From an uncultured bacterium (GTDB lineage: Bacteria; Verrucomicrobiota; Kiritimatiellia; RFP12; UBA1067), in NCBI GenBank assembly GCA_902779565.1, contig CACZCD010000008.1, positions 571 to 64,570 on the forward strand: 64,000 nucleotides of DNA. The letters are read 5' to 3'. This document shows positions 30,528-50,645 of this stretch, in pieces. The notes below the pieces were generated by a model. That model was not told where the DNA came from. It worked only from the letters and a program-made list of their open reading frames with translations, and did not search any database. Position 1 is the first letter of the stretch. Each line of letters starts with the position of its first letter. Made by a program: the position numbers and the translations under genes.

Positions 30528-31445
30528 ATGAGAAAAGAAGATGGTGTGAAACTGAGCAAGAGGACGGCTGATGGGAAGATTGCGTATCTGATCAAGCCCA
30601 TTTTAAAGGTGTTGCAGGACGCGGGTGGGCAGTTGGAGCGTTCGGAAATAAAAGAACGCATAGCTGATTTGGATGACCAGATTGCCGAGTATGCCGAAAA
30701 AGTGACGATATCGAAGAAAAAGGGGAATACTTACAAGGAGTTCAATTTCAAGTTCAACTTTGCAGTCAAGGATTTGCTTTTTAATGGGTTGGTGACATTC
30801 TCGCGTTCATCTCCCGTGGTGCTAACGGAGAAGGGTGAAAACCTCAATTTAAACACGCTTGATGTTTGGAAGATCATAGAGGCGTCTAAAACGCATTGGG
30901 AAGAACTTAGCGAGAACAGGAAGAAGAAAGACTTTGACCTGAACGACAGCGAAGAGGAGACGCAGGCAGAGGAAAAGATCAAGGATGAATTCAAGGAATC
31001 CTTGCTTGCAGCTATCGCAAAAATGTCGCCCAAAAAGTTTGAGGCGTTTTCAAGGGCGCTGTTAAACAAGATGGGTGTGGAGTTCACGGAAAAGGGCGTT
31101 CAAGTCAGCAATGATGGCGGTATTGATGGATACGGTTATCATGTTGATCGTAACGATTTTCGAACGACGCGGGTGGTGATTCAGTGCAAGCGGTATAATG
31201 TTGGGCCCGTGTCCGAGCCAGAGATCAACCAGTTTTTGGGCGCGATGAACAAGTACCAAGCAGATTACGGCGTGTTCATCACAAATGGTAGGTTTACAAG
31301 CGCGGCAAAAACCGCCGCAAAAGAAGGTTCGCCGATTACTTTGATCGACGGCAACGAATTGGTGAGACTGGTCATAAGATACGAATTGTATATCAAGCCG
31401 GTTCAGACCTATGTGTTGGATGATTTCTATGATTCAGACGAGTAA
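30528..31445 (+). CDS. Mrr-like type IV restriction endonuclease (Mrr_N wHTH plus Mrr_cat)
   Basis: GGIDGYGYH...RVVIQCKRY...YGVFITNGRFTSAAKTAAKEG..ITLIDGNELVRLVIRY is the Mrr catalytic-core pattern. The gene is AT-rich. Confidence 0.75.
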   Translation: MRKEDGVKLSKRTADGKIAYLIKPILKVLQDAGGQLERSEIKERIADLDDQIAEYAEKVTISKKKGNTYKEFNFKFNFAVKDLLFNGLVTFSRSSPVVLTEKGENLNLNTLDVWKIIEASKTHWEELSENRKKKDFDLNDSEEETQAEEKIKDEFKESLLAAIAKMSPKKFEAFSRALLNKMGVEFTEKGVQVSNDGGIDGYGYHVDRNDFRTTRVVIQCKRYNVGPVSEPEINQFLGAMNKYQADYGVFITNGRFTSAAKTAAKEGSPITLIDGNELVRLVIRYELYIKPVQTYVLDDFYDSDE

Positions 31446-31457
31446 GGAGATTTTTAG

Positions 31458-33146: not shown

Positions 33147-33284
33147 AATCTGGATGAACACGTGTATGCATGATGAAAGGAAAATGATAGATGATAAAAC
33201 AGGACATTGAAGAAAATGAAAAAGCGAGTGTTGCTGGTCGCGGTGTTGGCCGCGTTAAACCTATTTGCTGAAGGAGAGCCGAAG

Positions 33285-34913: not shown

Positions 34914-34917
34914 GGTT

Positions 34918-37596
34918 ATGAGCATGACATTGACGCATTATCAAGATCATACTTTGGCGGCGGTCAAGGCGTATTTCGAGCGCTGCGCTTTCGAGTCGCC
35001 GGAGGCCGCCTACAAGACGGTAACGGCGGAGGGCGACACGCGGCTGCGCCTGGGTGCGGACCATGGCTACAAGTCGCCGAAGGGGATGGAGAACGTGCCA
35101 ACTGTCTGCATCAAGGTTCCGACGGGCGGCGGCAAGACGATACTTGCGGCGCATTCGCTGAAAATCATCGCCGAGGCGCAGTCAAAGGATTATCCGTTCG
35201 TGTTATGGTTTGCGCCGAGCGACACGATACGGAAGCAGACGGCGGATGCATTCAAAAACGTGTTGCATCCGTATCGACAGGAACTTGACCGTCAGTTCGA
35301 AGGGCGCGTCAAGGTGTTCGACCTTGACGAGAAGTTCCAGATATTGCCGGAGGACATCGCGGACAACCTATGTATCGTTGTCAGTACCGTTCAGGCGTTC
35401 GTCCATGAGGAAACCGGAAAATACAACGTCTATCGGCATAACGAAGACATGGAGAAGCATTTCGGTGACATTGCGCTTGAGCCCGGTATGGAGGCGCAGG
35501 ACGAGGCGGTTGGCGGCGATCCGACGAAACCGAAGTTCTCTTTCGCCAATTTCCTGTGCCACATACGCCCGATCATCATTGTTGACGAGGCGCATCACAT
35601 GGTGACAGACCTCTCGCAGAAATCGTTGGTGCGTCTGAATCCATGCGCTGTCCTGGGCTTGACGGCGACGCCAGGACGCGACAACAATGTCCTTTACAGC
35701 GTCTATGCGCAGGAGCTTTTTGACGAAGAGATGGTCAAGTTACCGATTGAGCTGACGGAGTACAAGCTTGATTGGGAAAAGGCCGTTGTGTCGGCAAACG
35801 CCAAACGCGCGCAGTTGGCGAAGCTTGCGGCGGCGGAGAATGCCGCAAAAGAGGGCAAATATGTCCGGCCGATCGTTTTGTTTCAGGCGACGCCGAAGAA
35901 CGGCGACGTTCCCGTCGAGAAGCTGAAGGAGTATCTGACGGACACGTTGAAGATTCCGGAAGAGGAAGTCAAGATCGCAACGGGTGACCAGAAGGAACTG
36001 GACGATGTCAATGTCATGGATTCAGCCTGCAAGGTCAATTACGTCATTACCGTCCAGGCGTTGAAGGAAGGGTGGGATTGCCCGTTCGCCTACGTTTTCT
36101 GTTCACTCGCAAATGTCGGCAGCAGCAAGGACACGATTCAGTTGTTGGGGCGTGTGATGCGCATGCCGTATGCAAAAAGGCGCAAAACGCGCGAGTTGAA
36201 CCGTGCGTATGCGTTCGTCATGAGCAAGGAGTTCGGTTCCGCCGCCAAGGAGCTGACGGAAGGTCTCAAGAAGAAGGGCTTTTCGGAGGTTGAGGCATTC
36301 AAGGCCGTGCAGGAGAATCTGCCGGAGACAGGGGGCCTGGGCGACTTGTTCTCCGTGCCGTCGGATGTGGTCAAGTTGGACAAGGCGACGCTGGATGGCC
36401 TAGTCTTGCCTGTGGGAATCAAGGTTCAGGATTTTGCAAGCGGCGACGGAGAGATACAGCTTTCAGGTTCTGAAGACGACGGGGTGATTGAGCAAGTGGC
36501 CGTGCAACTTGCTCAAAACGGCATGCAGGAAAAGGCGCACGAGCTGAAGCTCAAGCACCAGAAGAAGAAGGCGCAAGTCGCAGCGCCGATTCCGGCGAAG
36601 AGCCATCCATGGAGGTTCCCGAGGCTTGGCGTTGAGATAGACGGGGACAGTCTGTTTTCGACAGATGCTGTCTATGAGACGATTGGGGACTCCATACTTG
36701 GCTTTCTGCCAGAGGCTCTTTCCGGGGATGAAATATCAATAAGCGGCAACGACGGGAAGACATTCATCCTGAAACTGGACGGAAACGAGATGACCGCACG
36801 GTTCGCGGCAGATGCACATGCCGAGTATTTAAAAGGTTTCTCGGGGAAGATAGAAGATTCTGATGTCGTCAATGTGTTGGACGGCATTACCAAGGATTGC
36901 GTGTTGTTGTTGCAGTCAGAAAAGCGGCATTGGTTGACTCAGATCGTTGCCGATCTTCGGGCCAATCATGGCATGACCTGCGAACAGATGGTTTTGGTGC
37001 GCTTCCAGATCAAGCAACGGTTGGAATGGCATCTGAGCGAGGCGCTTGGCAAGGCAAGGCGCAAGGCGTATCAGCAGACGTTCTGCCTGGGCGGCGATTA
37101 CAAGCTGTCTTTGGATCTGCCCAGAGGATTTGCGCTTGATGAACATATATACGCGGGTAATTCAGATGTATACAATGGAAGCTGGCGGTTCAAGAAACAC
37201 TATTTGGGGACTTATGCCATACCTAAGTTTGACGGCAAGAAACCATTTGGCGAGGGAGAGGAATTCGAATGTGCGAAGCTGATTGATTCTTCGTCAAAGG
37301 TCCTTTATTGGCTTCGAAACAAGGATTCCGATTCGGCTTCGTTTCGTTTGCCAATGGGAGGCAGGACGGAGTGGTTCTATCCTGACTTTGTCGGGGAACT
37401 TGTGGACGGCCGGTTTTTCGTGTTGGAATACAAGGGCGAGCTTACTGGGCAATCCGCTGATACAGTCGAAAAGACGGCCATCGGGAAACTCTGGGCCGCG
37501 CAAGATGCATCGCGCTATGTCTATGCCACGATATACGGTTCTTCGCCAAGCGGCCTGACTGTAGCGCAACAGATAGAAGATGCCTTCAAGAATTAA
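34918..37596 (+). CDS. res: type III restriction enzyme Res subunit (SF2 helicase plus C-terminal PD-(D/E)xK nuclease)
   Basis: VPTGGGKT (Walker A), IIVDEAHH (DEAH box), and a C-terminal YPDF...FVLEYKG nuclease motif. It starts 4 nt after the mod stop. Confidence 0.8.
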   Translation: MSMTLTHYQDHTLAAVKAYFERCAFESPEAAYKTVTAEGDTRLRLGADHGYKSPKGMENVPTVCIKVPTGGGKTILAAHSLKIIAEAQSKDYPFVLWFAPSDTIRKQTADAFKNVLHPYRQELDRQFEGRVKVFDLDEKFQILPEDIADNLCIVVSTVQAFVHEETGKYNVYRHNEDMEKHFGDIALEPGMEAQDEAVGGDPTKPKFSFANFLCHIRPIIIVDEAHHMVTDLSQKSLVRLNPCAVLGLTATPGRDNNVLYSVYAQELFDEEMVKLPIELTEYKLDWEKAVVSANAKRAQLAKLAAAENAAKEGKYVRPIVLFQATPKNGDVPVEKLKEYLTDTLKIPEEEVKIATGDQKELDDVNVMDSACKVNYVITVQALKEGWDCPFAYVFCSLANVGSSKDTIQLLGRVMRMPYAKRRKTRELNRAYAFVMSKEFGSAAKELTEGLKKKGFSEVEAFKAVQENLPETGGLGDLFSVPSDVVKLDKATLDGLVLPVGIKVQDFASGDGEIQLSGSEDDGVIEQVAVQLAQNGMQEKAHELKLKHQKKKAQVAAPIPAKSHPWRFPRLGVEIDGDSLFSTDAVYETIGDSILGFLPEALSGDEISISGNDGKTFILKLDGNEMTARFAADAHAEYLKGFSGKIEDSDVVNVLDGITKDCVLLLQSEKRHWLTQIVADLRANHGMTCEQMVLVRFQIKQRLEWHLSEALGKARRKAYQQTFCLGGDYKLSLDLPRGFALDEHIYAGNSDVYNGSWRFKKHYLGTYAIPKFDGKKPFGEGEEFECAKLIDSSSKVLYWLRNKDSDSASFRLPMGGRTEWFYPDFVGELVDGRFFVLEYKGELTGQSADTVEKTAIGKLWAAQDASRYVYATIYGSSPSGLTVAQQIEDAFKN

Positions 37597-37677
37597 GATG
37601 AAATGCGGACTGCTGGCTGGAGGGGGTGCTAGAGGGACAGACCCAATTTGTGGAGTAGAAATGGTGGAGTAGAGACT

Positions 37678-37818
37678 ATGGCGATGCCGCAGAGAGACGA
37701 TACGATAGAGGCGATCAAGCGACTTGACGCCTTGCTTGAGTATGCTGTCATGCATGGAGACGAGGAAGAGGCCGAACGCATCCGCGAGGAGTTGCGCAAG
37801 CTGACGGAATCGGTTTGA
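37678..37818 (+). CDS. 46-aa helical small protein, copy 1 of a 3-member family
   Basis: MAMPQRDDTIEAIKRLDALLEYAVMHGDEEEAERIREELRKLTESV*. It is not in the ORF track (<60 aa). It is conserved at protein level with 44250..44390 and the split copy at 41007. Confidence 0.55.
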   Translation: MAMPQRDDTIEAIKRLDALLEYAVMHGDEEEAERIREELRKLTESV

Positions 37819-38082
37819 ATGGCGGCAGTATGGTATGATCTGGCGAGGAGGAACACTATGATAACGAAGAGCGAATTGGGAAATCTGCTTGAGCCCACGG
37901 AGACGTGCCGTGTCGAGCAAACCAAGTCCACGACGGACAAGGACAAGTTCGGCGAGGCCGAGACGGGGAAGTCGGTCGTACTGGCGCCAGCGCCAACTGA
38001 CGACGAGGTGCTTGAATGACAAAGAGGGTGAACGGATGAAAATCTTAAACACACGAATGAACATTTTCAGAGGAGGCGGGAA

Positions 38083-39174
38083 GTGAAGAAGAAGATCGGT
38101 GTTCACCTTGCACACGGAAATAAAAGACCTGTCAAGACGCGGAAGTCAAGTCTTGCAGATCGCATCATAACGCTTGTCGAGGAGGCAAAGCGCAAGGTTG
38201 TCTCGGCGGTCAATGTCGCTCTTGTCTATACCTACTACGAAGTCGGGCGAATGATTGTGGAGGAGGAGCAGGGGGGCAAGAAACGTGCCCAATACGGCAA
38301 GGCACAGCTCCAGGCACTGTCGAAGAAGTTGACGGCACAGCTCGGCAAGGGATGGAGCGCGACGAATCTAGAATACATGCGCAAGTTGTTCCGCGTGTAT
38401 TCAAATTCACCAATTCCTCAAACCGGGTTTGAGGAATCTGACGTAAGTCCTCGGTCCGTGTATCCGTTTCGCCTAAGCTGGTCGCACTATCTCGTGTTGA
38501 TGAGGATGGACAATCCTGACGAGAGACGCTTCTATGAAATCGAAGCCGCCGAAAACGGTTGGGATCTGGACGAGTTGAAGCGACAATTCAATTCCTCTCT
38601 TTACGAGAGGCTTGCCCTCAGTCGCGACAAGAAGGGCGTACTCGAATTGGCGAAAAAAGGGCAAATTGTCAAAAGGCCGGAAGATGTCGTCAAAGATCCG
38701 TATGTGCTTGAATTCCTCGGCCTGGAAGAGAAAGCGCGATACAGCGAAACGGAATTGGAGTCACGGATAATCGAACACGTCGAGCAGTTCATACTAGAAA
38801 TGGGCAAAGGATTCATTCTGGTTGGGCGGCAAGTACGTTTCACCTTCGAGGAAAAGCATTTCAGGGTGGATCTCGTGTTTTACAATCGGATTCTTCGGAG
38901 CTTCGTGGTCGTCGACCTGAAAACAGGCGAGTTGACGCATCAGGATATCGGGCAGATGCAGATGTACGTGAACTACTACGACCGAATGGTGAAGCTGCCG
39001 GAAGAGAATCCGACCATCGGGATACTCCTTTGTGCGGACAAGAACGACGCCATTGTTGAAATGACGCTGCCGCAAGGCTCCAAGCGCATATTCGCGAGCA
39101 AGTACATGACCGTTCTTCCCGATAAGGAAACCTTGCGTCTACTCGTCCGCAAGCAGCTCGGAGGCGAGAAATGA
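38083..39174 (+). CDS. DUF1016/YhcG-family PD-(D/E)xK nuclease, copy 1
   Basis: WSHYLVLMRMDNPDERRFYEIEA, DPYVLEFLGL, ESELESRIIEH..FILEMGKGF.LVGRQ and RVDLVFYNRILRSFVVVDLKTGEL match the YhcG pattern. GTG start follows a GGAGG SD. Confidence 0.75.
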   Translation: MKKKIGVHLAHGNKRPVKTRKSSLADRIITLVEEAKRKVVSAVNVALVYTYYEVGRMIVEEEQGGKKRAQYGKAQLQALSKKLTAQLGKGWSATNLEYMRKLFRVYSNSPIPQTGFEESDVSPRSVYPFRLSWSHYLVLMRMDNPDERRFYEIEAAENGWDLDELKRQFNSSLYERLALSRDKKGVLELAKKGQIVKRPEDVVKDPYVLEFLGLEEKARYSETELESRIIEHVEQFILEMGKGFILVGRQVRFTFEEKHFRVDLVFYNRILRSFVVVDLKTGELTHQDIGQMQMYVNYYDRMVKLPEENPTIGILLCADKNDAIVEMTLPQGSKRIFASKYMTVLPDKETLRLLVRKQLGGEK

Positions 39175-39500
39175 AGAAGCAGGCCACGAAAAAGAACGAC
39201 AAAGAATACGACAGATTGGTTGCCGACATCTCGAAGATGGCCAAGTCGTTGGCGGGGCATTACGAGCAGTCTTGTGCCTTGCTCAAACCGACAATAGATG
39301 ACGCCTGTCGGAATCCCAGTTCGTACAGCGAAAAGGAGATCGAGCGGATTTTCGATCAGATACTGGATGTGTCGTGCTACAAGAAGGGGAAGCTGCTCTT
39401 CGACAGGCTGTGCAAGTGTTTTATGCCGATCTATCCTGATGCGGTTCGGTTCTACATCGACAGCGAAAAGGAAATGTATGGTGACGAAAACGACACTTGA
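39171..39500 (+). CDS. hypothetical 109-aa protein between the two DUF1016 genes
   Basis: The start overlaps the upstream stop (ATGA at 39171). No recognisable motif. Confidence 0.45.
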   Translation: MKKQATKKNDKEYDRLVADISKMAKSLAGHYEQSCALLKPTIDDACRNPSSYSEKEIERIFDQILDVSCYKKGKLLFDRLCKCFMPIYPDAVRFYIDSEKEMYGDENDT

Positions 39501-39553
39501 AGAACCTAAGAAACAGATTGCCGACGACGAGTGTGAGCTGATGGAGGTGAAAC

Positions 39554-40945
39554 ATGCGCAGTAAAAAGAAAACTGACTTTGAAAGTCTGGTCGGTCGGAT
39601 TCAGGCAACGTCGGAGGCGTTGCAGCAGGACGCGCTTGTGGTCATCAACCGCAGCGTAACAGCGCGGGCGTGGCTCACGGGCTACTACATCGTCGAGTAC
39701 GAACAGCACGGTGCTGACCGTGCAAAGTATGGCGAGAGGTTGTTGAAGAAACTTTCATCGAGGTTGGGATCTGATAAATACGCCGTTCCCACATTGAAAA
39801 CATATCGTCTTTTCTATAAGCTTTATCCTGAGCTTGCCGCTGAGATTTGCAGGTATCTGGAGAGCCGTTTCGGAAAAGGATCGACAGTGTCGAGCCAATT
39901 GCCGGGCGGCAACATCAACGTCTTGCCGGGAAAAGGATCGACACTGTCGAGCTTATCTGTGGAGCAGGGATTGCTTGTCTATTCTGGTGATGATATCGGC
40001 ATAGCACCATTCGCACTCTTCAACAACCTTTCGTATTCTCACATTTGCGAGTTGTTGCATCTTCCTGATCCGATGATGCGGACGTTCTATGCATTTGAGG
40101 CAATCCGCGGAACGTGGAGCGTGCGGGCCTTGCGCCGGCAGATTGACAGCCAGTACTATCAGCGCGTGGGATGGGCGAAGAATCCGCACAAGATCGCAGC
40201 GTTGGCGCAAGGGCGGGCGGAGAAGCTGGACGCGAAGGATTTCATCAAGCAGAAGACGGTTCTTGAATTCCTTGGATTGAAGCCCCGGGAAGATTGGGAT
40301 GAGTCGGATCTTGAGAAGGGGATCCTTGACAATCTCAAGAACTTCATTCGAGAGATGGGGGCCGGTTTCTGTTTCGAGGATCAGCAGCAGCACATCCTCA
40401 TCGATGATGTGTACGAACGGATTGATCTTGTATTCTACCACCGCATCCTTAAGTGCCACATCCTCATTGAGCTTAAGCCGAAGAAGCTCAACTACAAGGA
40501 TATTGCGCAACTTTCGCTCTATATGGCTTACTACCGTAAGAACAAGATGACGGCGGGCGACAATCCGCCGATCGGCATCCTTCTGTGCACGGGCGTAGGT
40601 AAAGAGACGGCCGAGTACCTCGCACCATTCACCGATCCGCAGCTTTTCCTCTCCGAGTATCAACTTCAGCTTCCCACGAAGGAGAGGTTCACCGAGTTCC
40701 TCAAGAAGGAAAACGAGGGGCTTCAGGCAAGTGTGGGAAAAGGTGTGGTAAAAAGTGGGGTAAAGATTCTGGAACTTCTCAAGGAGTTTCCGGAGATGAC
40801 GCGTGAAAGGCTGGCGGCGGAAGTGGGCCTGTCGGTAAGAGGCGTTGAAAAGAATCTCGCGCAACTGAAGGCTGCGGGCAAGATTCGCAGAATCGGTGGA
40901 CGCAAGGGCGGTCATTGGGAGGTCGTAAAAGGCGGCGGGAAGTAG
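39554..40945 (+). CDS. DUF1016/YhcG-family PD-(D/E)xK nuclease, copy 2, fused to a C-terminal winged-helix domain
   Basis: WSVRALRRQIDSQYYQR, LEFLGL, GAGFCFEDQQ and RIDLVFYHRILKCHILIELKPKKL. The C-terminal ILELLKEFPEMTRERLAAEVGLSVRGVEKNLAQLKAAGKIRRIGGRKGGHWEVV is a wHTH of the kind found at the C-terminus of AlbA_2/Schlafen-type proteins. Confidence 0.75.
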   Translation: MRSKKKTDFESLVGRIQATSEALQQDALVVINRSVTARAWLTGYYIVEYEQHGADRAKYGERLLKKLSSRLGSDKYAVPTLKTYRLFYKLYPELAAEICRYLESRFGKGSTVSSQLPGGNINVLPGKGSTLSSLSVEQGLLVYSGDDIGIAPFALFNNLSYSHICELLHLPDPMMRTFYAFEAIRGTWSVRALRRQIDSQYYQRVGWAKNPHKIAALAQGRAEKLDAKDFIKQKTVLEFLGLKPREDWDESDLEKGILDNLKNFIREMGAGFCFEDQQQHILIDDVYERIDLVFYHRILKCHILIELKPKKLNYKDIAQLSLYMAYYRKNKMTAGDNPPIGILLCTGVGKETAEYLAPFTDPQLFLSEYQLQLPTKERFTEFLKKENEGLQASVGKGVVKSGVKILELLKEFPEMTRERLAAEVGLSVRGVEKNLAQLKAAGKIRRIGGRKGGHWEVVKGGGK

Positions 40946-41006
40946 TAGTTGGCTATTTGTGGTTAGAGCTGGGAAGTTGACAGAGTAGAATGCATAGGGA
41001 AGCATC

Positions 41007-41427
41007 ATGGCGATGCCGCAGAGAGGCGATCCGCCTACGCCAAGGCTTCCGACTCCGCTGAAGCTTCCACCTACGCTAAAGCTACCGCCGCCGCGCTTTG
41101 CGCTAGGACGGACAAGACGGCGGACAAGACGGCGGACAAGTATGATCCTCCTTCGCGCTTGCGAGCTTCCGCCTTCGCCGAGCCTCCCCCCGTCACATCT
41201 TCATGCCCCACCCCTCCGACACATATTGCAATATGTGTACGAGCGTGTACGGTTGGTGATTAGTGGCTTCCGCCTCCGCGTATATGCTTTTGCGCGTCAA
41301 GTGCGTTGCTTGAATACGCCGTCAGGCCATTCCCGCTTTTATATAAATCCGGGAATGACCTGATATCGCCGAAGCCGAGGCCGCGCGCCTCCGTGAAGAG
41401 TTGAAGCGCCTCACCGACTCGATCTGA
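41007..41427 (+). pseudogene. split copy 2 of the 46-aa small-protein gene (about 336 bp replaces its middle)
   Basis: The 5' part atggcgatgccgcagaga (MAMPQRGD) is at 41007-41030. The 3' part ...AEAEAARLREELKRLTDSI* is at ~41364-41427. Unrelated repeat DNA lies between them. Confidence 0.6.
41063..41185 (+). repeat. 123-bp direct repeat, copy 1 (built from 18-nt and 12-nt sub-repeats)
   Basis: 119/123 identical to 42828-42950. It contains CCRCCTACGCTRAAGCTT-type 18-mers and GACGGCGGACAA x2. Confidence 0.85.
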
Positions 41428-41537
41428 AAGGAATCAAACCATGTTCACAGTTTATAAACCATGGACATCGTTGGTTACCACCGGATTTATATAAGTGCGG
41501 TGGTAAATGTGAGTGGTTTTTATATGCGCTGGCAGAT

Positions 41538-41566
41538 TTGCGGCAAAGGGCGGGGTGTGGTACAAT
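41538..41566 (+). promoter_or_regulatory. sigma70 promoter (TTGCGG-N17-TACAAT with TG extension), repeated at 44190-44218
   Basis: ctggcagatttgcggcaaagggcggggtgtggtacaat is near-identical to 44181-44218. It lies ~245 nt upstream of the second RhuM-like gene. Confidence 0.5.
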
Positions 41567-41812
41567 ACGCGGCGCTTTCGGGGATTGATGCCCTAGGTAG
41601 GGCTATAAAGCGAAAGTCGTCCGGACCGGGCTTGTGGCAAGCTGAGATCCACAGGAAACCGCATGGGCCGGGTAGCGAGGAAATCCGCTGAAACAACGCG
41701 GACGCCACTTCGGTGGCATGGCTGGCAGAGCCGATTCCAGACTGCAGCGGCGGCGTGTGCCGCCGATGATACGGCAACACATCCCGCATAGGCGGGCGAA
41801 AGGAATCGGACA

Positions 41813-42727
41813 ATGGGATACAACACGGAGTTTGAAGGCGAGTTTGCCTTGAGCAAAAAGAATGAGATTATCGTCTATCAGCCGAATGAAACCATGCGGC
41901 TGGATGTTCGGCTTGAAAACGAAACAGTTTGGTTGACTCAAAGCCCAATGGGGATTTTGTTTGGATGTACGACACGAAACATAAGGCTGCACCTTGAGAA
42001 CATCTACTCATGCGGAGAACTGACGCAGGAGGCAACTAGGAAGGATTTCTTCCTAGTTCGGCAAGAAGGAGACCGGCAAGTAAAAAGGAATGTCACCTGC
42101 TACAATCTTGACGCAATAATATCCGTCGGTTATAGGGTTAATTCCGTGTTGGGCGTGAAGTTCAGACAATGGGCGACCCAAGTTCTCAAAGATTACATGC
42201 TTCGCGGCTATGCGTTCAGCCAACGTTTGAACCAGCTTGAAGACAAGATGGATCGGCGGCTTTCGAAGCACGATCAGGAGATTGTAGAGCTGAAGGACAA
42301 GGTGGATTTCTTCGTCCAGACTTCGCTGCCGCCGATGCAGGGCGTGTTCTACAACGGACAGGTCTTTGACGCGAAGGTGTTTGCGGCAAAGCATATCTTG
42401 AGCGCGAAGAAGTCGATCCTACTCATTGACAGTTGGGTGGATGTCGTGACGCTTGAACTGCTAGCGAAAAAAGCAAAGGGCGTGACGGTCGAGATTGTTG
42501 CCTCGCACAGAGGTAATAAGATTTCGCCAAGTGACATTGCAACATTCAACAGTCAGTATGGTGGCTTGACGGTGCGCCAAAGTCGAAACTTCCACGACCG
42601 TTTTCTCATCATCGATGACAAGGTGCTGTATCTCATCGGCGCGTCGTTGAAAGACCTTGGTTGGAAATGTTTCGCCTTCACGAAACTTGATGCCGCCGAA
42701 ATCCCCAACCTGAAGGCGAGGGTGTAA
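41813..42727 (+). CDS. RhuM-family protein with PLD/HKD-like C-terminal domain, copy 2
   Basis: Paralog of 29592..30509: IIVYQPNETMRLDVRLENETVWLTQ, ISVGYRVNSVLGVKFRQWATQVLKDYMLRGY, HDRFLIIDDKVLYLIGASLKDLG. Confidence 0.7.
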   Translation: MGYNTEFEGEFALSKKNEIIVYQPNETMRLDVRLENETVWLTQSPMGILFGCTTRNIRLHLENIYSCGELTQEATRKDFFLVRQEGDRQVKRNVTCYNLDAIISVGYRVNSVLGVKFRQWATQVLKDYMLRGYAFSQRLNQLEDKMDRRLSKHDQEIVELKDKVDFFVQTSLPPMQGVFYNGQVFDAKVFAAKHILSAKKSILLIDSWVDVVTLELLAKKAKGVTVEIVASHRGNKISPSDIATFNSQYGGLTVRQSRNFHDRFLIIDDKVLYLIGASLKDLGWKCFAFTKLDAAEIPNLKARV

Positions 42728-42827
42728 TGCGCGTACCCTAATTTCAGGCGGCAGTTTGGTCTAATTCCCGCTGTAAAAAGTAGGTCAACAAGTTGGAGTA
42801 GTTTGAACAATAGAAATACTCTTGCGA

Positions 42828-42950
42828 GCTTCCGCCTACGCTGAAGCTTCCGCCGCCGCGCTTTGCGCTAGGACGGTCAAGACGGCGGACAAGACGGCGG
42901 ACAAGTATGATCCTCCTTCGCGCTTGCGAGCTTCCGCCTTCGCCGAGCCT
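42828..42950 (+). repeat. 123-bp direct repeat, copy 2
   Basis: See 41063-41185. Together the two copies bracket the second RhuM-like gene and its leader. Confidence 0.85.
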
Positions 42951-42993
42951 ACCCCCGCTGCTCGTGTGAGATGGGGAAGCATCTGAGCAGCTC

Positions 42994-43081
42994 GGGCGTG
43001 AAAACTGAAAATGCACATTTCACGCCCAAAATCGGCATGTCCAAAATGGGCGTGAAATCTGCAAATGCATGTTTCACGCCC
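42994..43081. repeat. two 34-bp inverted repeats GGGCGTGAAA-N14-TTTCACGCCC, 54 bp apart
   Basis: Located at 42994-43027 and 43048-43081. Each has a perfect 10-bp arm and a 14-nt centre containing TGCA. Confidence 0.8.
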
Positions 43082-43159
43082 ATATTCGATTGACTTCAGC
43101 CCTGCCGAAACCTCGCCGATCTTGAATCAATTGCGGCGCGCCTGAATCCTAACCAAGTT

Positions 43160-43398
43160 CATAGTTTGCAAACTATGGTTCTTAGATTGGGCGGCACTTC
43201 GCGATACGACAGATTCAAAGTTTGCAAACAGTGGTTTCCGAGTGGCGCCACATTCCACATGGCGATAACATGTTCATAGTTTGCAAACTATGGTTTCCGC
43301 CCGATCCTTTCGTGCCTCATAGATACACAGTTTGCAAACTATGGATTTCGATTGGGCGATACTTCGCCATACCACAGGTTCAAAGTTTGCAAACTATG
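43160..43398. repeat. array of five 18-bp palindromes (consensus CATAGTTTGCAAACTATG), period 51-59 bp
   Basis: Copies at 43160-43177, 43216-43233, 43275-43292, 43326-43343 and 43381-43398. The segments between them are partly similar to each other. The array sits just downstream of the wHTH gene. Confidence 0.9.
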
Positions 43399-43406
43399 AA
43401 ATTGTG

Positions 43407-43988
43407 TTAGGAGGGAGATAGGGGCTGCAATGCGAGGGCGAGCAGGGTGCGGGCGAGAGGGTCGGATGGTTTCCCGAGTTCGTAGATGCGATGTCCGTCT
43501 GGCGCGTCGCAGGGGATGACTATCTGCGCCGCAATCAAGATGCCAAGCTGCCGCCGCAGCGTAGCGAACGGAAGATCCGTTGCTTTGGCAAGTTCCTCAA
43601 AGCCGCATCGCGCGTTGGAGGAGAGGGACTGCAGGATGCGGATGCGGACATGGTGGGCAAAGGCGTTGATCGTGTTGAGAAGGGGCTTCTGCCAGTCCAG
43701 TTCGCAGGAAGCCGCGAAGAGTCTTGCCAAGACCATCTGAAGCCTGTACACGGGCGATGCCTTCTCCGGTTCGCCGGAACAGATGACATACCGTCCCGTA
43801 CGTTCGACCGAAAGAAACCCCGCCTCGGCCAGCTGCTTGAGGTATTGGCTGGCGGCGGCCTTTTTGAGACCGACGAATTCGCCCGCCTGGACGACATGCA
43901 GTTCGCGGTTGGGCGATGTGGCGATTTCCCGCAGCAGCGACAACCGAATCTCGTTGTTGAGAACCCGACAGATTTTCCAGAACTCCAT
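43407..43988 (-). CDS. transcriptional regulator with two tandem ArsR-like winged-helix domains
   Basis: WKICRVLNNEIRLSLLREIA...GLKKAAASQYLKQLAEAGFLSVERTGRYV and FAHHVRIRILQSLSS...LAKATDLPFATLRRQLGILIAAQIV give two ArsR/SmtB-type wHTH units in one 193-aa chain. Confidence 0.65.
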   Translation of the reverse strand: MEFWKICRVLNNEIRLSLLREIATSPNRELHVVQAGEFVGLKKAAASQYLKQLAEAGFLSVERTGRYVICSGEPEKASPVYRLQMVLARLFAASCELDWQKPLLNTINAFAHHVRIRILQSLSSNARCGFEELAKATDLPFATLRRQLGILIAAQIVIPCDAPDGHRIYELGKPSDPLARTLLALALQPLSPS

Positions 43989-44034
43989 ACCTCTCCTTTC
44001 GCCCCAAAGTATATCACACCTTACCTCTGAAAAC

Positions 44035-44168
44035 CATAGTTTGCAAACTGTGGTTTTCAGGTGGGTGTCGCCGCGCCTTACTACAGGTTCAAAGTTTGCA
44101 AACTATGGCTTCGCGGTGGCTGCACATGGTACATAACGATATCACATGTTCATAGTTTGCAAACTGTG
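44035..44168. repeat. three more copies of the 18-bp palindrome upstream of the wHTH gene
   Basis: Copies at 44035-44052 (part of an extended near-palindrome at 44030-44057), 44090-44107 and 44151-44168. Spacing is 55 and 61 bp. Confidence 0.9.
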
Positions 44169-44189
44169 GTTTCGCATGGGCTGGCAGAT

Positions 44190-44218
44190 TTGCGGCAAAG
44201 GGCGGGGCGTGGTATAAT
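44190..44218 (+). promoter_or_regulatory. sigma70 promoter (TTGCGG-N17-TATAAT with TG extension)
   Basis: Second copy of the 41538-41566 promoter module. GAAGGTGA SD and ATG 44250 lie downstream. Confidence 0.5.
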
Positions 44219-44249
44219 ATGCGGCGGAATGAATCGAAGGTGAATGACC

Positions 44250-44390
44250 ATGGCGATGCCACAGAGAGACAATGTGATTGAGGAAATCAAGCGGCTGGAT
44301 CTGTTGCTTGAATATGCCGTTCAGCATGGTGACGAAGCCGAGGCCGAGCGCCTCCGCGAAGAGCTGAAGCGCCTCACCGAACGTTTATGA
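44250..44390 (+). CDS. 46-aa helical small protein, copy 3
   Basis: MAMPQRDNVIEEIKRLDLLLEYAVQHGDEAEAERLREELKRLTERL*. Same length as copy 1, and the differences are largely conservative or synonymous-type. Confidence 0.55.
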   Translation: MAMPQRDNVIEEIKRLDLLLEYAVQHGDEAEAERLREELKRLTERL

Positions 44391-44414
44391 CGAAAACCCA
44401 AAAGGAGAAGAACT

Positions 44415-44630
44415 ATGCACTATTCGCGCTACAAAGTTGTGGTGATTGAGGAAAGCGGGCTGAGCACGCTGCTGGTCGGTTCCGCGAAGATGCCGTTGGG
44501 CAAAATCGAGCAGACATTTAACCAATATGCACAACAGGGTTGGCAAGTCGTCTTTCAGATTGTCGAGAAACGGCGCTTCCTCCTGTTCTGGTCGCGCGAG
44601 GCGATGATCGTTACATTTGGACATGTCTGA
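44415..44630 (+). CDS. small DUF4177-like protein
   Basis: 71 aa: MHYSRYKVVVIEESGL...IEQTFNQYAQQGWQVVFQIVEKRRFLLFW. The pattern resembles DUF4177 (from memory, unverified). Confidence 0.45.
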   Translation: MHYSRYKVVVIEESGLSTLLVGSAKMPLGKIEQTFNQYAQQGWQVVFQIVEKRRFLLFWSREAMIVTFGHV

Positions 44631-44765
44631 TCCGACGTCGGCAACCACCGGACTTCTATAAATGCGGTGGTAAATGCGCGCCGCCCGAAAAGCCCCACCC
44701 CCGTACGCATATTGCAATATGTGCACGGGAGCGTGTGCGCTTGGGGAAACGCGAAGCGAAAGGCA

Positions 44766-44774
44766 TGGTATAAT
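44766..44774 (+). promoter_or_regulatory. extended -10 box TGGTATAAT, leaderless uORF transcript
   Basis: TATAAT ends at 44774 and the ATG is at 44781 (6-nt gap). Confidence 0.5.
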
Positions 44775-44780
44775 ACGCCC

Positions 44781-44876
44781 ATGAATTCTAAAGATGAAAT
44801 GCGGGTGGGGATGGCAGACGATGGAAAGGTTTCGTCATCCGTCGCCCGGGAGAATATGGTAGGCTTAAGATCATGA
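44781..44876 (+). CDS. 31-aa upstream ORF overlapping the next gene by ATGA
   Basis: MNSKDEMRVGMADDGKVSSSVARENMVGLRS*. Its TGA (44874-44876) overlaps ATG 44873 of the downstream gene. Confidence 0.35.
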   Translation: MNSKDEMRVGMADDGKVSSSVARENMVGLRS

Positions 44877-45895
44877 AAATAAAGACAATCCTATTGGGCG
44901 CCGCGTTGGCGGCAACCATCCCGATGAAGGCGGCGCAAAGTTACTTCGTCATATTCGACAGCTTGCTCCGCGTCCCTGCGCTGTGCTACCCGCTCCCTCC
45001 CGGCTGGACCGGCATGGGCTGGGTCAAGTGGAACGTGCCCGCGCGCTCGAATCCGTATCTCCAGAGCACCATCCTGATGAACCCGTCGGAACGGCGCATC
45101 GTGCAGGAGGCGGGCTTCATCGGCAGGGGCGCGTTCCTCCTTAGTCAGTCCGGCGGCATCTACTCCAACCCCGACGCCATGGCCCAGCACCTCGCCCGGG
45201 AAATCAATTCGGGCATCGTGGTTCCCGGGCTGTCCAGCTTCCGGGCGAAGGGGGGACGCTTCAGCGACAATATCCCGCCGAAGACGCAGCGGGCCGTGGC
45301 GTTTCGGTTCGCGTCCGACCGCGCATCCACGTTCAAGAAGGCGTTCAAGGTGGAGTGTTTCTTCGACTGCGACTACAACGGCGCGCGGTGCGAGGCGCTC
45401 TACGAGTTCGTCTGCGCGTTCAGCGCGGTGCAGGTGCGGCCGAACGTGCCGGCCATGGCGTCGGCCATGGATTTCGACACCTTCCTGACCGTGGCGCCGC
45501 CCGGCAAACTCGCCGAGACGAAGAAGGTCGGCGGACGCCTGCTGGCCGGAGGGTTCGAGAACCGGCTGTGGAGACACGCCGCGAATCGGATGATGACGGC
45601 GATCCTCAAGGGCCAGATGATCGGCATGAACGAAGGCATGGACCTCATGCGCCAGGCGCGGATCGAGAACGAGAAGACGATGGACAAAGTCCGTCGCCAG
45701 TGGAGCGAGATGATCCGCGAGGTGAAGACGGTGGACAACCCGCTCTCGCCCGGCGACAAGATCGAGCGTCCGATTTATTTCAACCATTCGCTGATCAACT
45801 CGCGTCAGGACACCTTGATCATGAGCGACCGGACGATCGAGCCGCATGAAGCCGAGAAGCTCATGGGGCAGGGTTTCTGGACGGTCGTGGATTGA
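44873..45895 (+). CDS. secreted hypothetical protein
   Basis: Signal peptide MKIKTILLGAALAATIPMKAAQS. 340 aa with host-like GC. No family recognised. Confidence 0.55.
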   Translation: MKIKTILLGAALAATIPMKAAQSYFVIFDSLLRVPALCYPLPPGWTGMGWVKWNVPARSNPYLQSTILMNPSERRIVQEAGFIGRGAFLLSQSGGIYSNPDAMAQHLAREINSGIVVPGLSSFRAKGGRFSDNIPPKTQRAVAFRFASDRASTFKKAFKVECFFDCDYNGARCEALYEFVCAFSAVQVRPNVPAMASAMDFDTFLTVAPPGKLAETKKVGGRLLAGGFENRLWRHAANRMMTAILKGQMIGMNEGMDLMRQARIENEKTMDKVRRQWSEMIREVKTVDNPLSPGDKIERPIYFNHSLINSRQDTLIMSDRTIEPHEAEKLMGQGFWTVVD

Positions 45896-48052: not shown

Positions 48053-49174
48053 TCACATCATCTTTGCCCGCCAAGCGCGCGGGGTGGTGCCGGTCGCGGC
48101 GTGGAACGCATTGGAAAGATGCGAGGGGGTGCAGAATCCCGTGGCCGCCGCGATTTCCGATACGGACATCTTGGTGTTGCGGAGGAGCAGCTTGACCTTG
48201 GCGAGACGTCGGCGGGCGATCTCCTTGCCGACAGAACGCCCCAGCTCGGCGGTGAAGTGCTTGTGCAGCACGTTCTGCGTGATGCCGAGCGCATTTGCGA
48301 TCTGCACCGCGCCGAAACTCGTCGCGAGGTTCGCCTCGATGTATTTCAGCCCTTGCCGGACGAGCGGATCGGTGACGGCGATCACGTCGGTGGAGCGGCG
48401 GAGCACCACGCCTGCGGGCGGCACGAGGATGGGGCTTGCCGGCGGTCTGCCGCCCTCCATCAGCCGATGCAGGAGGGAGGCCGCCTCGTAGCCGCCGCGT
48501 TCGAGGTTCTGGTCGATGGAGGAGAGCGGCACGGACTGGTTTTCGCAGATGAGCGGGTCGTTGCCGATGGAGAGGATGGCCAGCTCCTCCGGCACGGAGA
48601 CACCCGTTCGCTCCGCCACGTCCAGAAGGCGGGCGGCGTCCGATTCGTCGTAGGTGAGCGCGGCGAGCGGTTTGGGTGCCGCCTTCAGCTTGGACGAGAG
48701 CCAGCGCAGAAAGGCATCCCAGTCGTTCCGCCGTGTCTTCGGCATCTCTTCCTCCGCGACCCAGCGCGCGGCGGGTGTCCGTTCGGTGAGGCCAAGGTAC
48801 CGCAGCTCCTGCACTTTCCCCCAGCCGGTCGAGAACCAGACGATGTTCCGGAAGTTGCGCTCCGCGAAATGCTCGGCGGCGAGGCGTCCGATCGCGGTGT
48901 GGTCGCTCATGACGCGGGGAACCTTGATGTCGGGACGGCTGATGGTGAGATCCACCACCGGGATGCCGCGCTTCATCAACCTCTTGACGGCATCGACCGA
49001 GACGGGGTCGGAGCGGAGCGCGGCGATCACGCCGTTGCCGTCCCAGGCGAGCGGATGGTAGCCGAGGCGGTCCTGGATCATCAGGTGCCATCCCTGCTCG
49101 TGCGCATAGCGGGCGATGCCCGCGATGCGGGCGGCGCTCATCGGCGACACCATGGCCAACACTTTCTCTCTCAT
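48053..49174 (-). CDS. XylR-like regulator (periplasmic-binding-protein-like sensor plus AraC-type HTH)
   Basis: C-terminal ...SVSEIAAATGFCTPSHLSNAFHAATGTTPRAWR is an AraC HTH. The N-terminal sugar-binding-like fold begins MREKVLAMVSPM. ATG 49174 is preferred. Confidence 0.75.
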   Translation of the reverse strand: MREKVLAMVSPMSAARIAGIARYAHEQGWHLMIQDRLGYHPLAWDGNGVIAALRSDPVSVDAVKRLMKRGIPVVDLTISRPDIKVPRVMSDHTAIGRLAAEHFAERNFRNIVWFSTGWGKVQELRYLGLTERTPAARWVAEEEMPKTRRNDWDAFLRWLSSKLKAAPKPLAALTYDESDAARLLDVAERTGVSVPEELAILSIGNDPLICENQSVPLSSIDQNLERGGYEAASLLHRLMEGGRPPASPILVPPAGVVLRRSTDVIAVTDPLVRQGLKYIEANLATSFGAVQIANALGITQNVLHKHFTAELGRSVGKEIARRRLAKVKLLLRNTKMSVSEIAAATGFCTPSHLSNAFHAATGTTPRAWRAKMM

Positions 49175-49252
49175 GGCGCGCAGTATAGCACAGGGTGGAT
49201 GGGAGATGCAAGTTTTCCAAAATAATTTGCAAGTGAAATTGGAGGGGGCTTG

Positions 49253-49261
49253 TGCTATCAT
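49253..49261 (+). promoter_or_regulatory. extended -10-like box TGcTATCAT, leaderless transcript
   Basis: The box ends at 49261 and the ATG is at 49269 (7-nt gap). It is divergent from the XylR-like gene. Confidence 0.4.
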
Positions 49262-49268
49262 ACACGGC

Positions 49269-50645
49269 ATGAAAGCAAAGGCATGGAGACTTTACGGGGC
49301 GCGCGATGCGCGTCTTGAAGACATTGAACTTGAACCAGCCGGCGAGGAAGGCATTGTCGTCGAGCTGGTGACGAACACGATCTGCCTCAGCGACTACAAG
49401 GGCGCGACCCTCGGCACCGGGCACAAGCGAGTGCCGCGCGACATCGCGACGCGGCCGACGATGTTCGGGCACGAGGTTTCGGGCATCGTGCGCGAGGTGG
49501 GCACGAAGTGGAAAGACCAGTTCCACGTGGGTCAGCATGTGGGGCTTCAGCCGTCGCTGAACATTCCCGGGCACGAGCTGGAGACGGTCGGCTACGCCTG
49601 GCACACGATCGGCGGCGAAACGACGCACGTGTACCTCCCCTCCATCGTGATGGAGATGGGGTGCCTTCTGCCGTACGACGGCGATGCGTTCTTCAAGTGT
49701 TCGCTCGCCGAGCCGATCAGCTGCATCGTCTCGGGCTTTCGCACGAACTACCACAACGCGTTCTGCTCGCACGACCTTGAAGTGGGCATCGTCGATAAGG
49801 GCACGATGCTCCTGATGGCGGGTTGCGGCGCGATGGGCCTCGGCTGCATCGACATCGCCTGCCACTCGCCGGAGAAGCGTCCGCGCAGGCTTGTTGTGAC
49901 GGACATCGACGACACGCGCATGGCGCGCGCGGCGCAGATATTTGGCCTCTCCTACGCGAACGGCCGGGCCGACGGCGAGCTGAACGGCGTGGAGCTCCAC
50001 TTCATCAACGTGAAGGACATCGCGGACCCCGTTGCGACGTTGAAGGCGTACAATCGGACGGACGACGCCCGCGCCGACAATCCCACTTCGACGGGCGGCG
50101 GCTACGACGACATCTTCCTGATGGCGGCGGCACCTGCGCTGATCACGCAATGCTCCGACCTTCTTGGTTTCGGGGGCTGCCTCAACTTCTTCGCGGGTCC
50201 GACGGACCAGCATCTGATGGCGAGCTTCAACTTCTACAACGTCCACTACCTGATGCACCATGTGGTCGCAAACTCCGGCGGCGACGTGAAGGACATGGCC
50301 GATTCCGTCGATTGGATCGGGAAGGGCTATCTGCACCCGGAGGTGATGATCACGCATGTGGGCGGACTCGACTCCGCCGCCGAGGCGACCTTCGACATGC
50401 TGAAGATTCCGGGCGGCAAGCGCCTCGTTTATACGCACGTCAATATGCCGATGACGGCCATTGCGGATTTCGCGGAGAAGGGGAAGTCCGATCCGTTCTA
50501 TGCGGAGCTTGACCGCATCTGCTCGGCGAACAAGGGTCTTTGGTGCAAGGAGGCGGAGGACTACCTTCTCGCCCACGCGCCCAAGGTCGAGATCGGCGAG
50601 CCGAAAGAACTCGTCAAGGAGCGGATCTTAAGAGTAAGGAGTTGA
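49269..50645 (+). CDS. MDR-family (zinc-type) polyol/alcohol dehydrogenase-like protein, 458 aa
   Basis: MKAKAWRLYGARDARLEDIELEPAG..., ICLSDYK, GHE.SG and GCGAMGLG nucleotide-fold motifs. Confidence 0.65.
   Translation: MKAKAWRLYGARDARLEDIELEPAGEEGIVVELVTNTICLSDYKGATLGTGHKRVPRDIATRPTMFGHEVSGIVREVGTKWKDQFHVGQHVGLQPSLNIPGHELETVGYAWHTIGGETTHVYLPSIVMEMGCLLPYDGDAFFKCSLAEPISCIVSGFRTNYHNAFCSHDLEVGIVDKGTMLLMAGCGAMGLGCIDIACHSPEKRPRRLVVTDIDDTRMARAAQIFGLSYANGRADGELNGVELHFINVKDIADPVATLKAYNRTDDARADNPTSTGGGYDDIFLMAAAPALITQCSDLLGFGGCLNFFAGPTDQHLMASFNFYNVHYLMHHVVANSGGDVKDMADSVDWIGKGYLHPEVMITHVGGLDSAAEATFDMLKIPGGKRLVYTHVNMPMTAIADFAEKGKSDPFYAELDRICSANKGLWCKEAEDYLLAHAPKVEIGEPKELVKERILRVRS

Follow-up and report, generated by a model that had tools for sequence, protein, structure and literature searches.

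A fused double winged-helix protein of the ArsR/SmtB superfamily, encoded between arrays of its probable operators in an uncultured Kiritimatiellia bacterium

A 64,000-nucleotide stretch of DNA from an uncultured rumen bacterium of the Kiritimatiellia (GTDB lineage RFP12, UBA1067; contig CACZCD010000008.1 of assembly GCA_902779565.1, positions 571 to 64,570), hereafter called the window, carries a gene for a 193-amino-acid (aa) protein with two ArsR/SmtB-like winged helices in one chain. Eight copies of an 18-bp palindrome bracket this gene. It is almost certain that the enclosed protein binds at these palindromes, because they stand at fixed offsets from the gene in about 35 loci, switch sequence together with the protein clade, and keep their core while the spacer between them decays. 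The explanation we favor, and consider probable, is that the protein is an autoregulated repressor whose operators have been multiplied, and that defense-type genes next to it are also under its control. The whole analysis rests on sequence comparison, for which the approximately 35 loci with relatives (designated by L numbers) were gathered from metagenomes and metagenome-assembled genomes (MAGs), most of them as short contigs. On this basis the sites exist, are conserved and selected, and are both linked to the gene and specific to the clade of its protein. The core features are the following.

43407..43988, minus strand: gene for the 193-aa tandem ArsR/SmtB-like winged-helix protein, recognized by profiles, AlphaFold2 (AF2), hhalign and Foldseek
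43160..43398, no strand: downstream array of five 18-bp palindromes (43160-77, 43216-33, 43275-92, 43326-43, 43381-98)
44035..44168, no strand: upstream array of three 18-bp palindromes (44035-52, 44090-107, 44151-68)
44008..44036, minus strand: predicted promoter of the regulator gene (TGGTTT, 17 nt, TATACT, preceded by TGA as an extended -10), read from the sequence

The eight palindromes, five after gene 43407-43988 and three before it, lie at exactly the coordinates claimed in an earlier sequence-only reading of this DNA. When the 64-kb window is searched with CATAGTTTGCAAACTATG at up to three mismatches, eight matches are obtained where 0.01 is expected by chance, and none of 100 shuffled windows yields eight. 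Two copies are perfect (starts 43160 and 43275), five carry one mismatch (43326, 43381, 44035, 44090 and 44151), and one carries three (43216). Similarly, when one mismatch is allowed, the 12-nt core AGTTTRYAAACT gives nine matches in 64 kb versus 0.11 expected; these are the eight array copies and positions 41449-41460 within another palindrome at 41446-41463, and there are none elsewhere. Written as a scan pattern, the site is CAHAGTTTRYAAACTDTG. The centers are 56, 59, 51 and 55 bp apart in the downstream array and 55 and 61 bp apart in the upstream array, reproducing the spacings of the earlier reading. Copy 44035-52 corresponds to the conserved promoter-proximal operator: it is centered 55 nt 5′ of the ATG and sits in a 30-bp perfect palindrome (44029-44058). 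Its stop-proximal counterpart, 43381-98, is centered 17 nt past the regulator stop codon.

An identical protein with the same three-plus-five layout is encoded on a 59-kb rumen metagenome contig (L048) and on a Logan contig (L049). Because these are independent rumen assemblies, the arrays are real and stable rather than artifacts of assembly. Tandem Repeats Finder (TRF) did not list the arrays in the window, since the repeat units are too diverged.

The placement of sites relative to the gene extends across the family. An upstream palindrome is present in all 31 loci with enough 5′ flank, centered 53-57 nt before the start codon except in L040 and L041, where the distance is 71-74 nt. A palindrome at or just past the stop codon is found in 26 of the 32 loci with enough 3′ flank. 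Its center falls at +17 to +20 in one protein clade (GC-type) and, in a sister clade (TA-type), either at +41 or on the stop codon itself, and in L037-L043 the stop codon falls within the palindrome. These fixed offsets are kept down to 44% protein identity. Array size ranges from one to seven copies upstream and from one to five downstream. The sequence-only reading had proposed that repeat number be compared across strains, and among strains whose proteins are 92-100% identical it indeed varies, from 1+2 (L001) to 1+5 (L020) and 3+5 (window, L048 and L049).

Other relatives show the same association in different forms. On one rumen MAG contig (L005), the genes of two paralogues are separated by 3.4 kb, and each has a separate array upstream of it. 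A relative with 27% identity in a Verrucomicrobiota MAG (L013) has a neighboring array of sites with the core AGTTTGCAAACT and other outer arms, TTCGC...GCGAA, and the same MAG holds two further three-copy arrays without a regulator gene (L006 and L016), one of them upstream of a hemB-like gene, a distribution that suggests regulon-like use. The most divergent loci, L050 and L052 (~25-39% identity), are without this motif and have their own palindromes, of the types ATCACACTTCGGAAGGTGTGAT and CACACTT-N-AAGTGTG, before the start and right after the stop codon; here the palindrome overlaps the ribosome-binding site. Because these distant genes are likewise bracketed, bracketing by a cognate palindrome appears to be an old trait of the family. 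No neighboring gene is common to the related loci (approximately 33 compared).

The core by itself can mislead. A scan of genome collections for two cores 38-68 nt apart also gave unrelated hits, which were set aside: Mucilaginibacter BlaI/BlaR1 operators, leucine-rich-repeat (LRR) and other coding repeats, and miscellaneous tandem repeats. In the Mucilaginibacter MAGs (L008, L015, L017 and L019), AGTTTGCAAACT centers two longer palindromes between BlaI/BlaR1-like genes. Thus, the 12-mer alone is not diagnostic of the tandem winged-helix family, because an unrelated winged helix-turn-helix (wHTH) family has the same core.

Sequence conservation within and between the arrays indicates selection on the sites. 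In the window the 18-mers are 92% identical pairwise, whereas the rest of the repeat units is only 45% identical, which argues that the sites are selected. A comparison of the 101 distinct sites across all loci shows no differences at positions 2-5, counted from the dyad; positions 8 and 9 are essentially invariant as well, while positions 7 and 10-15 vary. The sites also change with the protein. In the sister clade (44-55% identity), AGTTTATAAACT occupies the same positions, such that a TA center replaces the GC center; the GC-center and TA-center operators thus belong to sister protein clades. The two clades are fully separated at 22 of 193 alignment positions. Four of these (F38, L41, A45 and A46) belong to the nine-residue stretch that immediately precedes the invariant S47-Q48-Y49 in recognition helix 1, and none falls in recognition helix 2. 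Because the sites track the gene, change with the protein clade and stay conserved, the earlier suggestion of an operator array was of the right class.

A regular spacing, by contrast, is not a family property. Adjacent sites are 43-137 bp apart across the family, and these distances are not helically phased (mean resultant length 0.11-0.15, Rayleigh p >= 0.4). The ~55-bp periodicity noted in the sequence-only reading therefore holds for this lineage, where it is the length of the duplicated unit, and fails family-wide. The lack of phasing also argues against a regular filament; the sequence-only reading had suggested filament-like binding.

The protein itself bears out the claim that two ArsR-like winged helices are joined in one chain. 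It matches the NCBIfam ArsR/SmtB profile NF033788 in two stretches (64.4 bits, cut-off 55) and the Pfam families HTH_20 (35.8, cut-off 27), HTH_5 (32.2, cut-off 22) and MarR_2. A confident single-chain AF2 model built from a 16-sequence family alignment (predicted local distance difference test, pLDDT, 90.6; predicted template modeling score, pTM, 0.86) shows the complete a1-a2-a3-aR-b-b-a5 fold twice. The two halves align by hhalign with an E-value of 1e-4 at 12% identity, and their recognition helices are unlike, KAAASQYLKQL in the first (SQYLKQ) and PFATLRRQLGIL in the second (LRRQLG). Foldseek finds single-domain matches to CzrA, SqrR, HlyU, NolR and BigR (template modeling score, TM, 0.6-0.76), and Rv0081, BigR and ArsR are matched by sequence in the PDB. 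Over the full length, fold matches are found only to SarS (1p4x), PH1932 (1uly, 2cwe) and PF0095 (2quf), and these are weak (TM ~0.3, root-mean-square deviation, rmsd, 14-19 A). Thus, profiles, the AF2 model and Foldseek all give the fold of the ArsR/SmtB superfamily, whose canonical members are homodimers of single-domain subunits; because both domains here lie in one 193-aa chain, the regulator is a fused variant rather than a canonical member.

No metal-site motif (CXC in a3, or D/H-x-H...H/E in a5) is readable in the family alignment, and the conserved residues C7, C70, H112 and H113 sit elsewhere than the ArsR metal-site positions; it is speculation that they form a sensing site. Pfam finds no WYL domain in the regulator. 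An exhaustive profile search returns 236 clusters (50% identity) at E <= 1e-10, nearly all of 185-210 aa and aligned end to end, versus only 14 clusters at E <= 1e-30. The fused architecture therefore defines a sizeable uncharacterized family, of which the close relatives are few.

The predicted promoter of the regulator gene lies beside the promoter-proximal palindrome. Its TATACT element ends 19 nt before the ATG, which would place the operator center at about -42.5 from the predicted transcription start, overlapping the -35 element. Other clades share this geometry: in L002, L026, L032-L043 and L046 a palindrome is again followed by a hexamer and, 17 nt further on, by TATACT or TATAAT that has TG upstream of it. 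A second promoter is predicted to fire in the opposite direction from the far side of the upstream array, and its surroundings, together with those of a related unit nearby, are as follows.

44190..44218, plus strand: predicted divergent promoter (TTGCGG, 17 nt, TATAAT with TG)
44244-44390 and 44415-44630, plus strand: 48-aa helical small open reading frame (ORF) and DUF4177 protein gene, behind the divergent promoter and in the same order in L048
41538-41566, 41575-41812 and 41813-42727, plus strand: paralogous promoter, leader and RhuM-family/PDC-S05 gene, a candidate defense gene
41446..41463, no strand: single TA-center palindrome CACAGTTTATAAACCATG, of the sister-clade operator type
42994-43027 and 43048-43081, no strand: two 34-bp hairpin palindromes GGGCGTGAAA-N14-TTTCACGCCC, of a different sequence family and with an unproven link to the regulator

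The divergent promoter starts 21 nt to the right of palindrome 44151-68. In L001, L020 and L022 the promoter-proximal palindrome is the only one on the upstream side and lies between the regulator promoter and the divergent promoter. The window has two extra units here, yet the distance from palindrome to promoter is kept for both promoters. What follows the divergent promoter differs from strain to strain. In L020 it is a conserved leader of ~240 nt and a RhuM/PDC-S05 gene, so that the whole unit adjoins the operator of the regulator; in L001 it is the same leader and a metallophosphatase gene that groups with the metallophosphatases of L040 and L041, of which that of L040 matches PDC-S10; and in L022 it is again this leader and another gene. 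In the strain represented by the window, the 48-aa ORF and the DUF4177 gene are the probable local targets.

How might such an arrangement work? Binding, the sign of regulation, looping or roadblock action, stoichiometry and the sensed signal are matters that we infer from the patterns above. The two fused ArsR/SmtB winged helices would constitute a sequence-specific repressor, with the CAYAGTTTGCAAACTRTG palindromes as its operators. The core system would comprise one operator against the -35 element of the gene's own extended -10 promoter and another just past the stop codon. Occupancy of the promoter-proximal operator would most likely turn off transcription of the regulator gene itself; in ArsR-type autorepression, a long palindrome next to or over the -35 element of the regulator's own promoter is the usual geometry. 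In this lineage the divergent promoter would probably be affected too, and hence also the variable cargo, which in sister strains consists of a structured leader followed by RhuM/PDC-S05 or metallophosphatase/PDC-S10. The site past the stop codon most likely has one of two roles. It might act jointly with its upstream counterpart, such that the ~650-bp gene is looped out between them. Alternatively, protein bound there might act as a roadblock that insulates the gene from neighboring transcription, whether entering or leaving it. The extra copies would have arisen by tandem duplication of operator-holding units of 50-80 bp, and selection would have kept them as further sites that increase binding capacity or cooperativity, for sharper or stronger repression or for buffering of free repressor.

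Each palindrome is probably held by two protomers, each through its first winged helix. Two unlike heads facing a strictly symmetric site make this likelier than binding by one pseudo-dimeric monomer, and the residues that discriminate GC from TA sites, which cluster at the first helix only, point the same way. The proposal that each monomer would bind one palindrome is therefore doubtful.

Several observations weigh against this picture of an autorepressor with useful extra operators. A center at about -42.5 is the classic position of a class II activator, such that autoactivation in place of autorepression is conceivable. A simple sigma-70 scan did not call the promoters, which were read by eye, and the same promoter and terminator scan found no terminators at the arrays. 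The stop-proximal site is missing from 6 of 32 loci, and looping or a roadblock is thus not essential to the family. The clustering of F38, L41, A45 and A46 is suggestive of a first helix that sets specificity, but it is confounded with phylogeny. The unphased spacing speaks against a regular filament and says nothing on the role of the extra copies. Indeed, these copies could be nearly neutral, given 1+5 and 3+5 arrangements in near-identical strains.

If many relatives have just one site on each side, then why would this lineage carry eight? It may be that only the promoter-proximal and stop-proximal sites function, and that the other copies, generated where long palindromes undergo slippage or unequal recombination, are close to neutral and have no role of their own. 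Repeat number does differ among nearly identical proteins, and spacings and unit sequences are specific to lineages. We nevertheless regard this explanation as unlikely, though it deserves to be kept in view, because the extra palindromes are 83-100% intact beside spacers of ~45% identity, a pattern that calls either for purifying selection or for conversion limited to the 18-mer, and because the five-copy downstream array is orthologous and stable in the window, L020, L048 and L049.

The other alternatives tested (ALTERNATIVES) concern partition or replication, repetitive extragenic palindromic (REP) elements and bacterial interspersed mosaic elements (BIMEs), RNA hairpins and CRISPR (clustered regularly interspaced short palindromic repeats). 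Could the palindromes act as transcribed hairpins (3′ stabilizers, terminators or attenuators) or as REP/BIME-like elements, with only an incidental link to the winged-helix gene? The stop-proximal copy does lie within the 3′ end of the mRNA, the palindrome covers the ribosome-binding site in L050 and L052 and includes the stop codon in L037-L043, and palindrome arrays after genes resemble BIMEs. Yet the obligatory upstream copy lies 5′ of the gene's own predicted promoter and is thus outside the regulator transcript. Three of the eight window copies would contain non-pairing A-A or U-U type mismatches (CAAAG...CTATG), neither the loop-equivalent center TTGCAA nor the inner stem covaries, both being invariant, there is no terminator-like tail, and Rfam gives no match (the window at gathering thresholds and 41400-44300 at E <= 1). 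REP elements and BIMEs typically occur in many dispersed copies per genome, tied to no one gene and often accompanied by a RAYT transposase. Here, no dispersed copy occurs in the other 62 kb of the window, and the offsets from the gene are fixed in 31 of 31 loci; the distant MAG does have its two further arrays at other promoters. We consider an RNA or REP-like role very improbable. A CRISPR array was rejected, given that the spacers are mutually homologous rather than unique, no cas genes are present among the ORFs scanned, and the arrays lie at fixed offsets from the regulator gene.

The sequence-only reading had also proposed a centromere or iteron-type site of an integrated element. A centromere (as in TubR/tubC, AspA, ParR/parC or SopB/sopC) or a set of copy-control iterons (as in P1 incC/incA) of an integrated or former plasmid or phage, for which the wHTH protein would be the centromere binder or the initiator, is the hypothesis to which we give the least credence. 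In its favor, those systems likewise flank the gene for a small wHTH binder with arrays of sites, the iteron Rep proteins have a tandem winged helix, and there are weak, sub-threshold matches to the N-terminal domain of RepC (18.4 bits, cut-off 24.4, across a generic HTH stretch) and to AspA (E 0.3, non-significant; Foldseek rank 38, one domain only). That the array adjoins the binder gene is a feature common to ordinary operators. Among the window genes scanned, however, no cognate NTPase (ParA, ParM or TubZ) was found, nor Rep, an integrase or a tRNA, and a PDB search with the regulator gave no Rep match. Neither a homologue nor an array occurs in 72,556 plasmids (PLSDB) or in IMG/VR viral contigs, a PHROG search gave no match, and no neighbor is conserved across the approximately 33 loci. 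There is no DnaA box within 10 kb and no AT-rich stretch (minimum GC fraction 0.45). Iterons would be direct repeats of about 17-22 bp, spaced at 11 or 22 bp on a replicon beside DnaA boxes and an AT-rich unwinding region; here palindromes at unphased distances of 43-137 bp are found, on a chromosomal backbone, with several paralogues on one contig (L005) and, in one MAG, arrays before metabolic genes.

The locus lies exactly at the right edge of a low-GC defense island, where the GC fraction rises from ~0.53 to >0.62 at ~44.9 kb, and this position invites the idea of a many-site nucleoprotein block that seals the island and insulates island and backbone genes from each other. The sites on both sides of the gene, and the swapping of neighbors between strains while the module is kept, would fit. 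We judge such a boundary or silencing function improbable, since most relatives have one site per side, some other loci place the module within islands or beside metabolic genes, and nothing in the unphased spacing points to a continuous filament. A more elaborate form of the favored explanation, to which we assign a rather low probability, is that the bracketing arrays form a looped multi-site nucleoprotein switch that silences adjacent toxic defense genes (RhuM/PDC-S05, PDC-S10), with a threshold that strains would tune by gain or loss of operator units. The array could also serve as a titration store, such that defense genes are released when the repressor is inactivated or drawn off during infection. 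If such a switch exists, it would represent a new regulatory logic for defense islands in gut bacteria of the Planctomycetes-Verrucomicrobia-Chlamydiae (PVC) group.

Returning to the autoregulated repressor with multiplied operators, its closest relatives by descent are the ArsR/SmtB repressors (SmtB, CzrA, ArsR, BigR, SqrR, HlyU and NolR, with inverted-repeat operators of the 12-2-12 type at their own promoters). Each half of the protein is a full ArsR fold, and as in these systems a long palindrome, here the putative operator, adjoins or overlaps the -35 element of the regulator's own promoter. Unlike them, the protein combines two folds with 12% mutual identity and no readable metal motif, its operator is repeated past the stop codon and multiplied into arrays, and its context is a defense island rather than a metal or sulfur resistance operon. 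Staphylococcus aureus SarS and the archaeal proteins PH1932 and PF0095 likewise have two winged helices per chain of ~190-250 aa, but their domain arrangement differs, as the poor full-length superpositions indicate. To our knowledge, no operator arrays have been described for these three proteins. We conclude that the regulator is by descent a fused-domain ArsR/SmtB variant with unusual operator multiplicity, and not a new class of element.

For the probable working of the locus, the closest match is found in phage switches whose multi-site operators cooperate by DNA looping. In lambda, the cI-rex region lies between OR and OL; coliphage 186 CI has the flanking sites FL and FR, and TP901-1 CI has OR, OL and OD. 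These switches and the locus share palindromic operators on both sides of the repressor gene, with one set at its own promoter, and divergent promoters that have the operator region in common. The differences are an unrelated protein family, a location outside any prophage, up to seven sites in strain-variable number, and a regulator without a visible separate oligomerization domain.

Plasmid partition and iteron loci offer another comparison. In pB171 the order is parC1-parAB-parC2, and F sopC has 12 units of 43 bp with an inverted repeat in each. Like the locus, these and P1 have tandem one-site units beside or on both sides of the binder gene and copy-number-like variation. The locus differs in having no replicon or partition partner and no plasmid or phage occurrence, and in its palindromic, unphased sites. 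This likeness is more superficial than that to the phage switches. The statement that no described system has this layout was therefore too strong, as lambda OR/OL, pB171 parC1/parC2 and P1 incA-repA-incC also bracket a binder gene. For P1, the order is given as incC-repA-incA (PMC6906374).

With respect to defense islands, the relevant precedent is BrxR/CapW, a small wHTH repressor of the WYL family that binds inverted repeats and occurs in or beside defense islands with many defense systems; BrxR has two sites in its own island (PMC9122601). Our regulator resembles BrxR/CapW in being co-located with defense genes, and differs in lacking a WYL domain and homology and in the arrays that bracket its own gene. 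Literature searches for the motif, or for tandem ArsR proteins with palindrome arrays, found no description of the family or motif.

The silencing and switching of defense islands are poorly known beyond the BrxR/CapW regulators, and essentially unknown in uncultured Verrucomicrobiota-like bacteria of the rumen and gut. The locus defines an uncharacterized family of fused double-ArsR regulators for which the genome sequence itself reveals the operator, and its natural GC and TA variants point to the residues that may read the site. It thus offers a testable model of how operator multiplicity and bracketing serve autoregulation, how such a module travels with defense cargo, and what encodes its specificity for a site. 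The locus also counsels caution: palindrome arrays near small wHTH genes should not be taken for centromeres or CRISPR-like arrays unless a partner NTPase or cas genes are present.

Two neighboring elements noted in the sequence-only reading differ from the array sites. The palindrome at 41446-41463, described there as a degenerate copy, is present but belongs to the sister-clade type of operator, with a TA center in place of GC. The paralogous promoter (41538-41566) follows 74 nt downstream of it, and no TA-type regulator gene exists in the 64-kb window. The two 34-bp inverted repeats, thought to continue the array, are indeed found, 54 bp apart between the array and a 131-nt repeat, but constitute a separate element from the 18-mers that is restricted to this lineage and shared only with L001 (8767-8853).

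The ~240-nt leader occurs in the window (41575-41812, plus strand), L001 (7639-7914), L020 (2082-2367) and L022 (791-1087). It is ~95% conserved in these four loci, above the conservation of the promoter itself and despite the differing downstream genes, and it contains a cUUCGg hairpin. The leader may be a portable cis-regulatory RNA. As a known riboswitch it was rejected, with no Rfam match for 41575-41812 and a fold z-score of just -1.5.

The 48-aa ORF (MAMPQRD..EEIKRLD..LEYAV.HGDE.EAER.REEL..LTE) is found at 37679-37819, 41007-41429 (disrupted) and 44244-44390, and in L021 at 963-1093. The three island copies precede a YhcG region, nothing and DUF4177, respectively, and the ORF has no family match. 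In the Verrucomicrobiota MAG arrays every unit has TGGTATAAC, whereas the window units hold only weak GATAAC/CATAAC remnants. A promoter in every repeat unit is thus plausible for that MAG; with such weak remnants, we do not claim it for the window.

Across the island (~28-45 kb; ~28000-44900) the GC fraction falls from 0.60-0.68 to 0.40-0.56. Its genes include two of RhuM/PDC-S05 type, Mrr, a PtuA-like ATPase, a type III methyltransferase with its restriction enzyme, and two of YhcG/PDC-S02 type, one of which carries a fused C-terminal wHTH. No integrase or tRNA is found at the island borders, and a tRNA scan of the window found none. The backbone, which carries alaS, transporter genes, ptb-buk and a histidine kinase gene, is chromosomal. 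In other loci the neighbors are likewise candidate defense genes and include PDC-S01, PDC-S10, AbiU-like AIPR, NERD, DUF2357/PDDEXK_7 and E1-E2/JAB genes. An XylR-like gene at 48053-49270 was considered as a syntenic counterpart of a neighbor of TA-type loci; since the likeness is at the protein level only, these genes are paralogues and not the same locus.

Several other repeats are dispersed through the island and related loci. The 131-nt repeat occurs at 41062-41192 and 42827-42957 (96% identical), as well as in L001 (~8890-8990) and L046 (8770-8860). It is composed of GCTTCCGCC-type and GGCGGACAAGACGG-type subrepeats, its copies flank the promoter-leader-RhuM unit, and it looks like a miniature inverted-repeat transposable element (MITE), because the first copy and related short inserts interrupt small ORFs. 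Small palindromes based on CCGSATTTATATAARTSCGG lie at 41322-41363, 41475-41504 and 44644-44673 and in L002 (~1350-1375 and ~1640-1665); the first is a 42-nt perfect-armed insertion within a copy of the 48-aa ORF. These are probably a dispersed hairpin repeat of these genomes. Upstream of the TA-type proximal operator, runs of GTCCGT/GCCCGT recur every ~11 bp in L032 (1-200), L033 (120-330) and L035 (290-500), and a similar CGTCTTGTCCG motif is seen in the window (42870-42905) and in the L002 unit spacers; such runs may be a second kind of binding-site array.

Finally, tandem heptamers (TAGTGGT/TTAGTGG, 5-13 copies) occupy backbone intergenic gaps and the left edge of the island, at 2086-2129, 15708-15755, 19608-19658, 24703-24792, 24857-24904 and 29502-29552, the last reading CTAACCA on the other strand, and a (CACGCAC)x11 run occupies 25084-25160.

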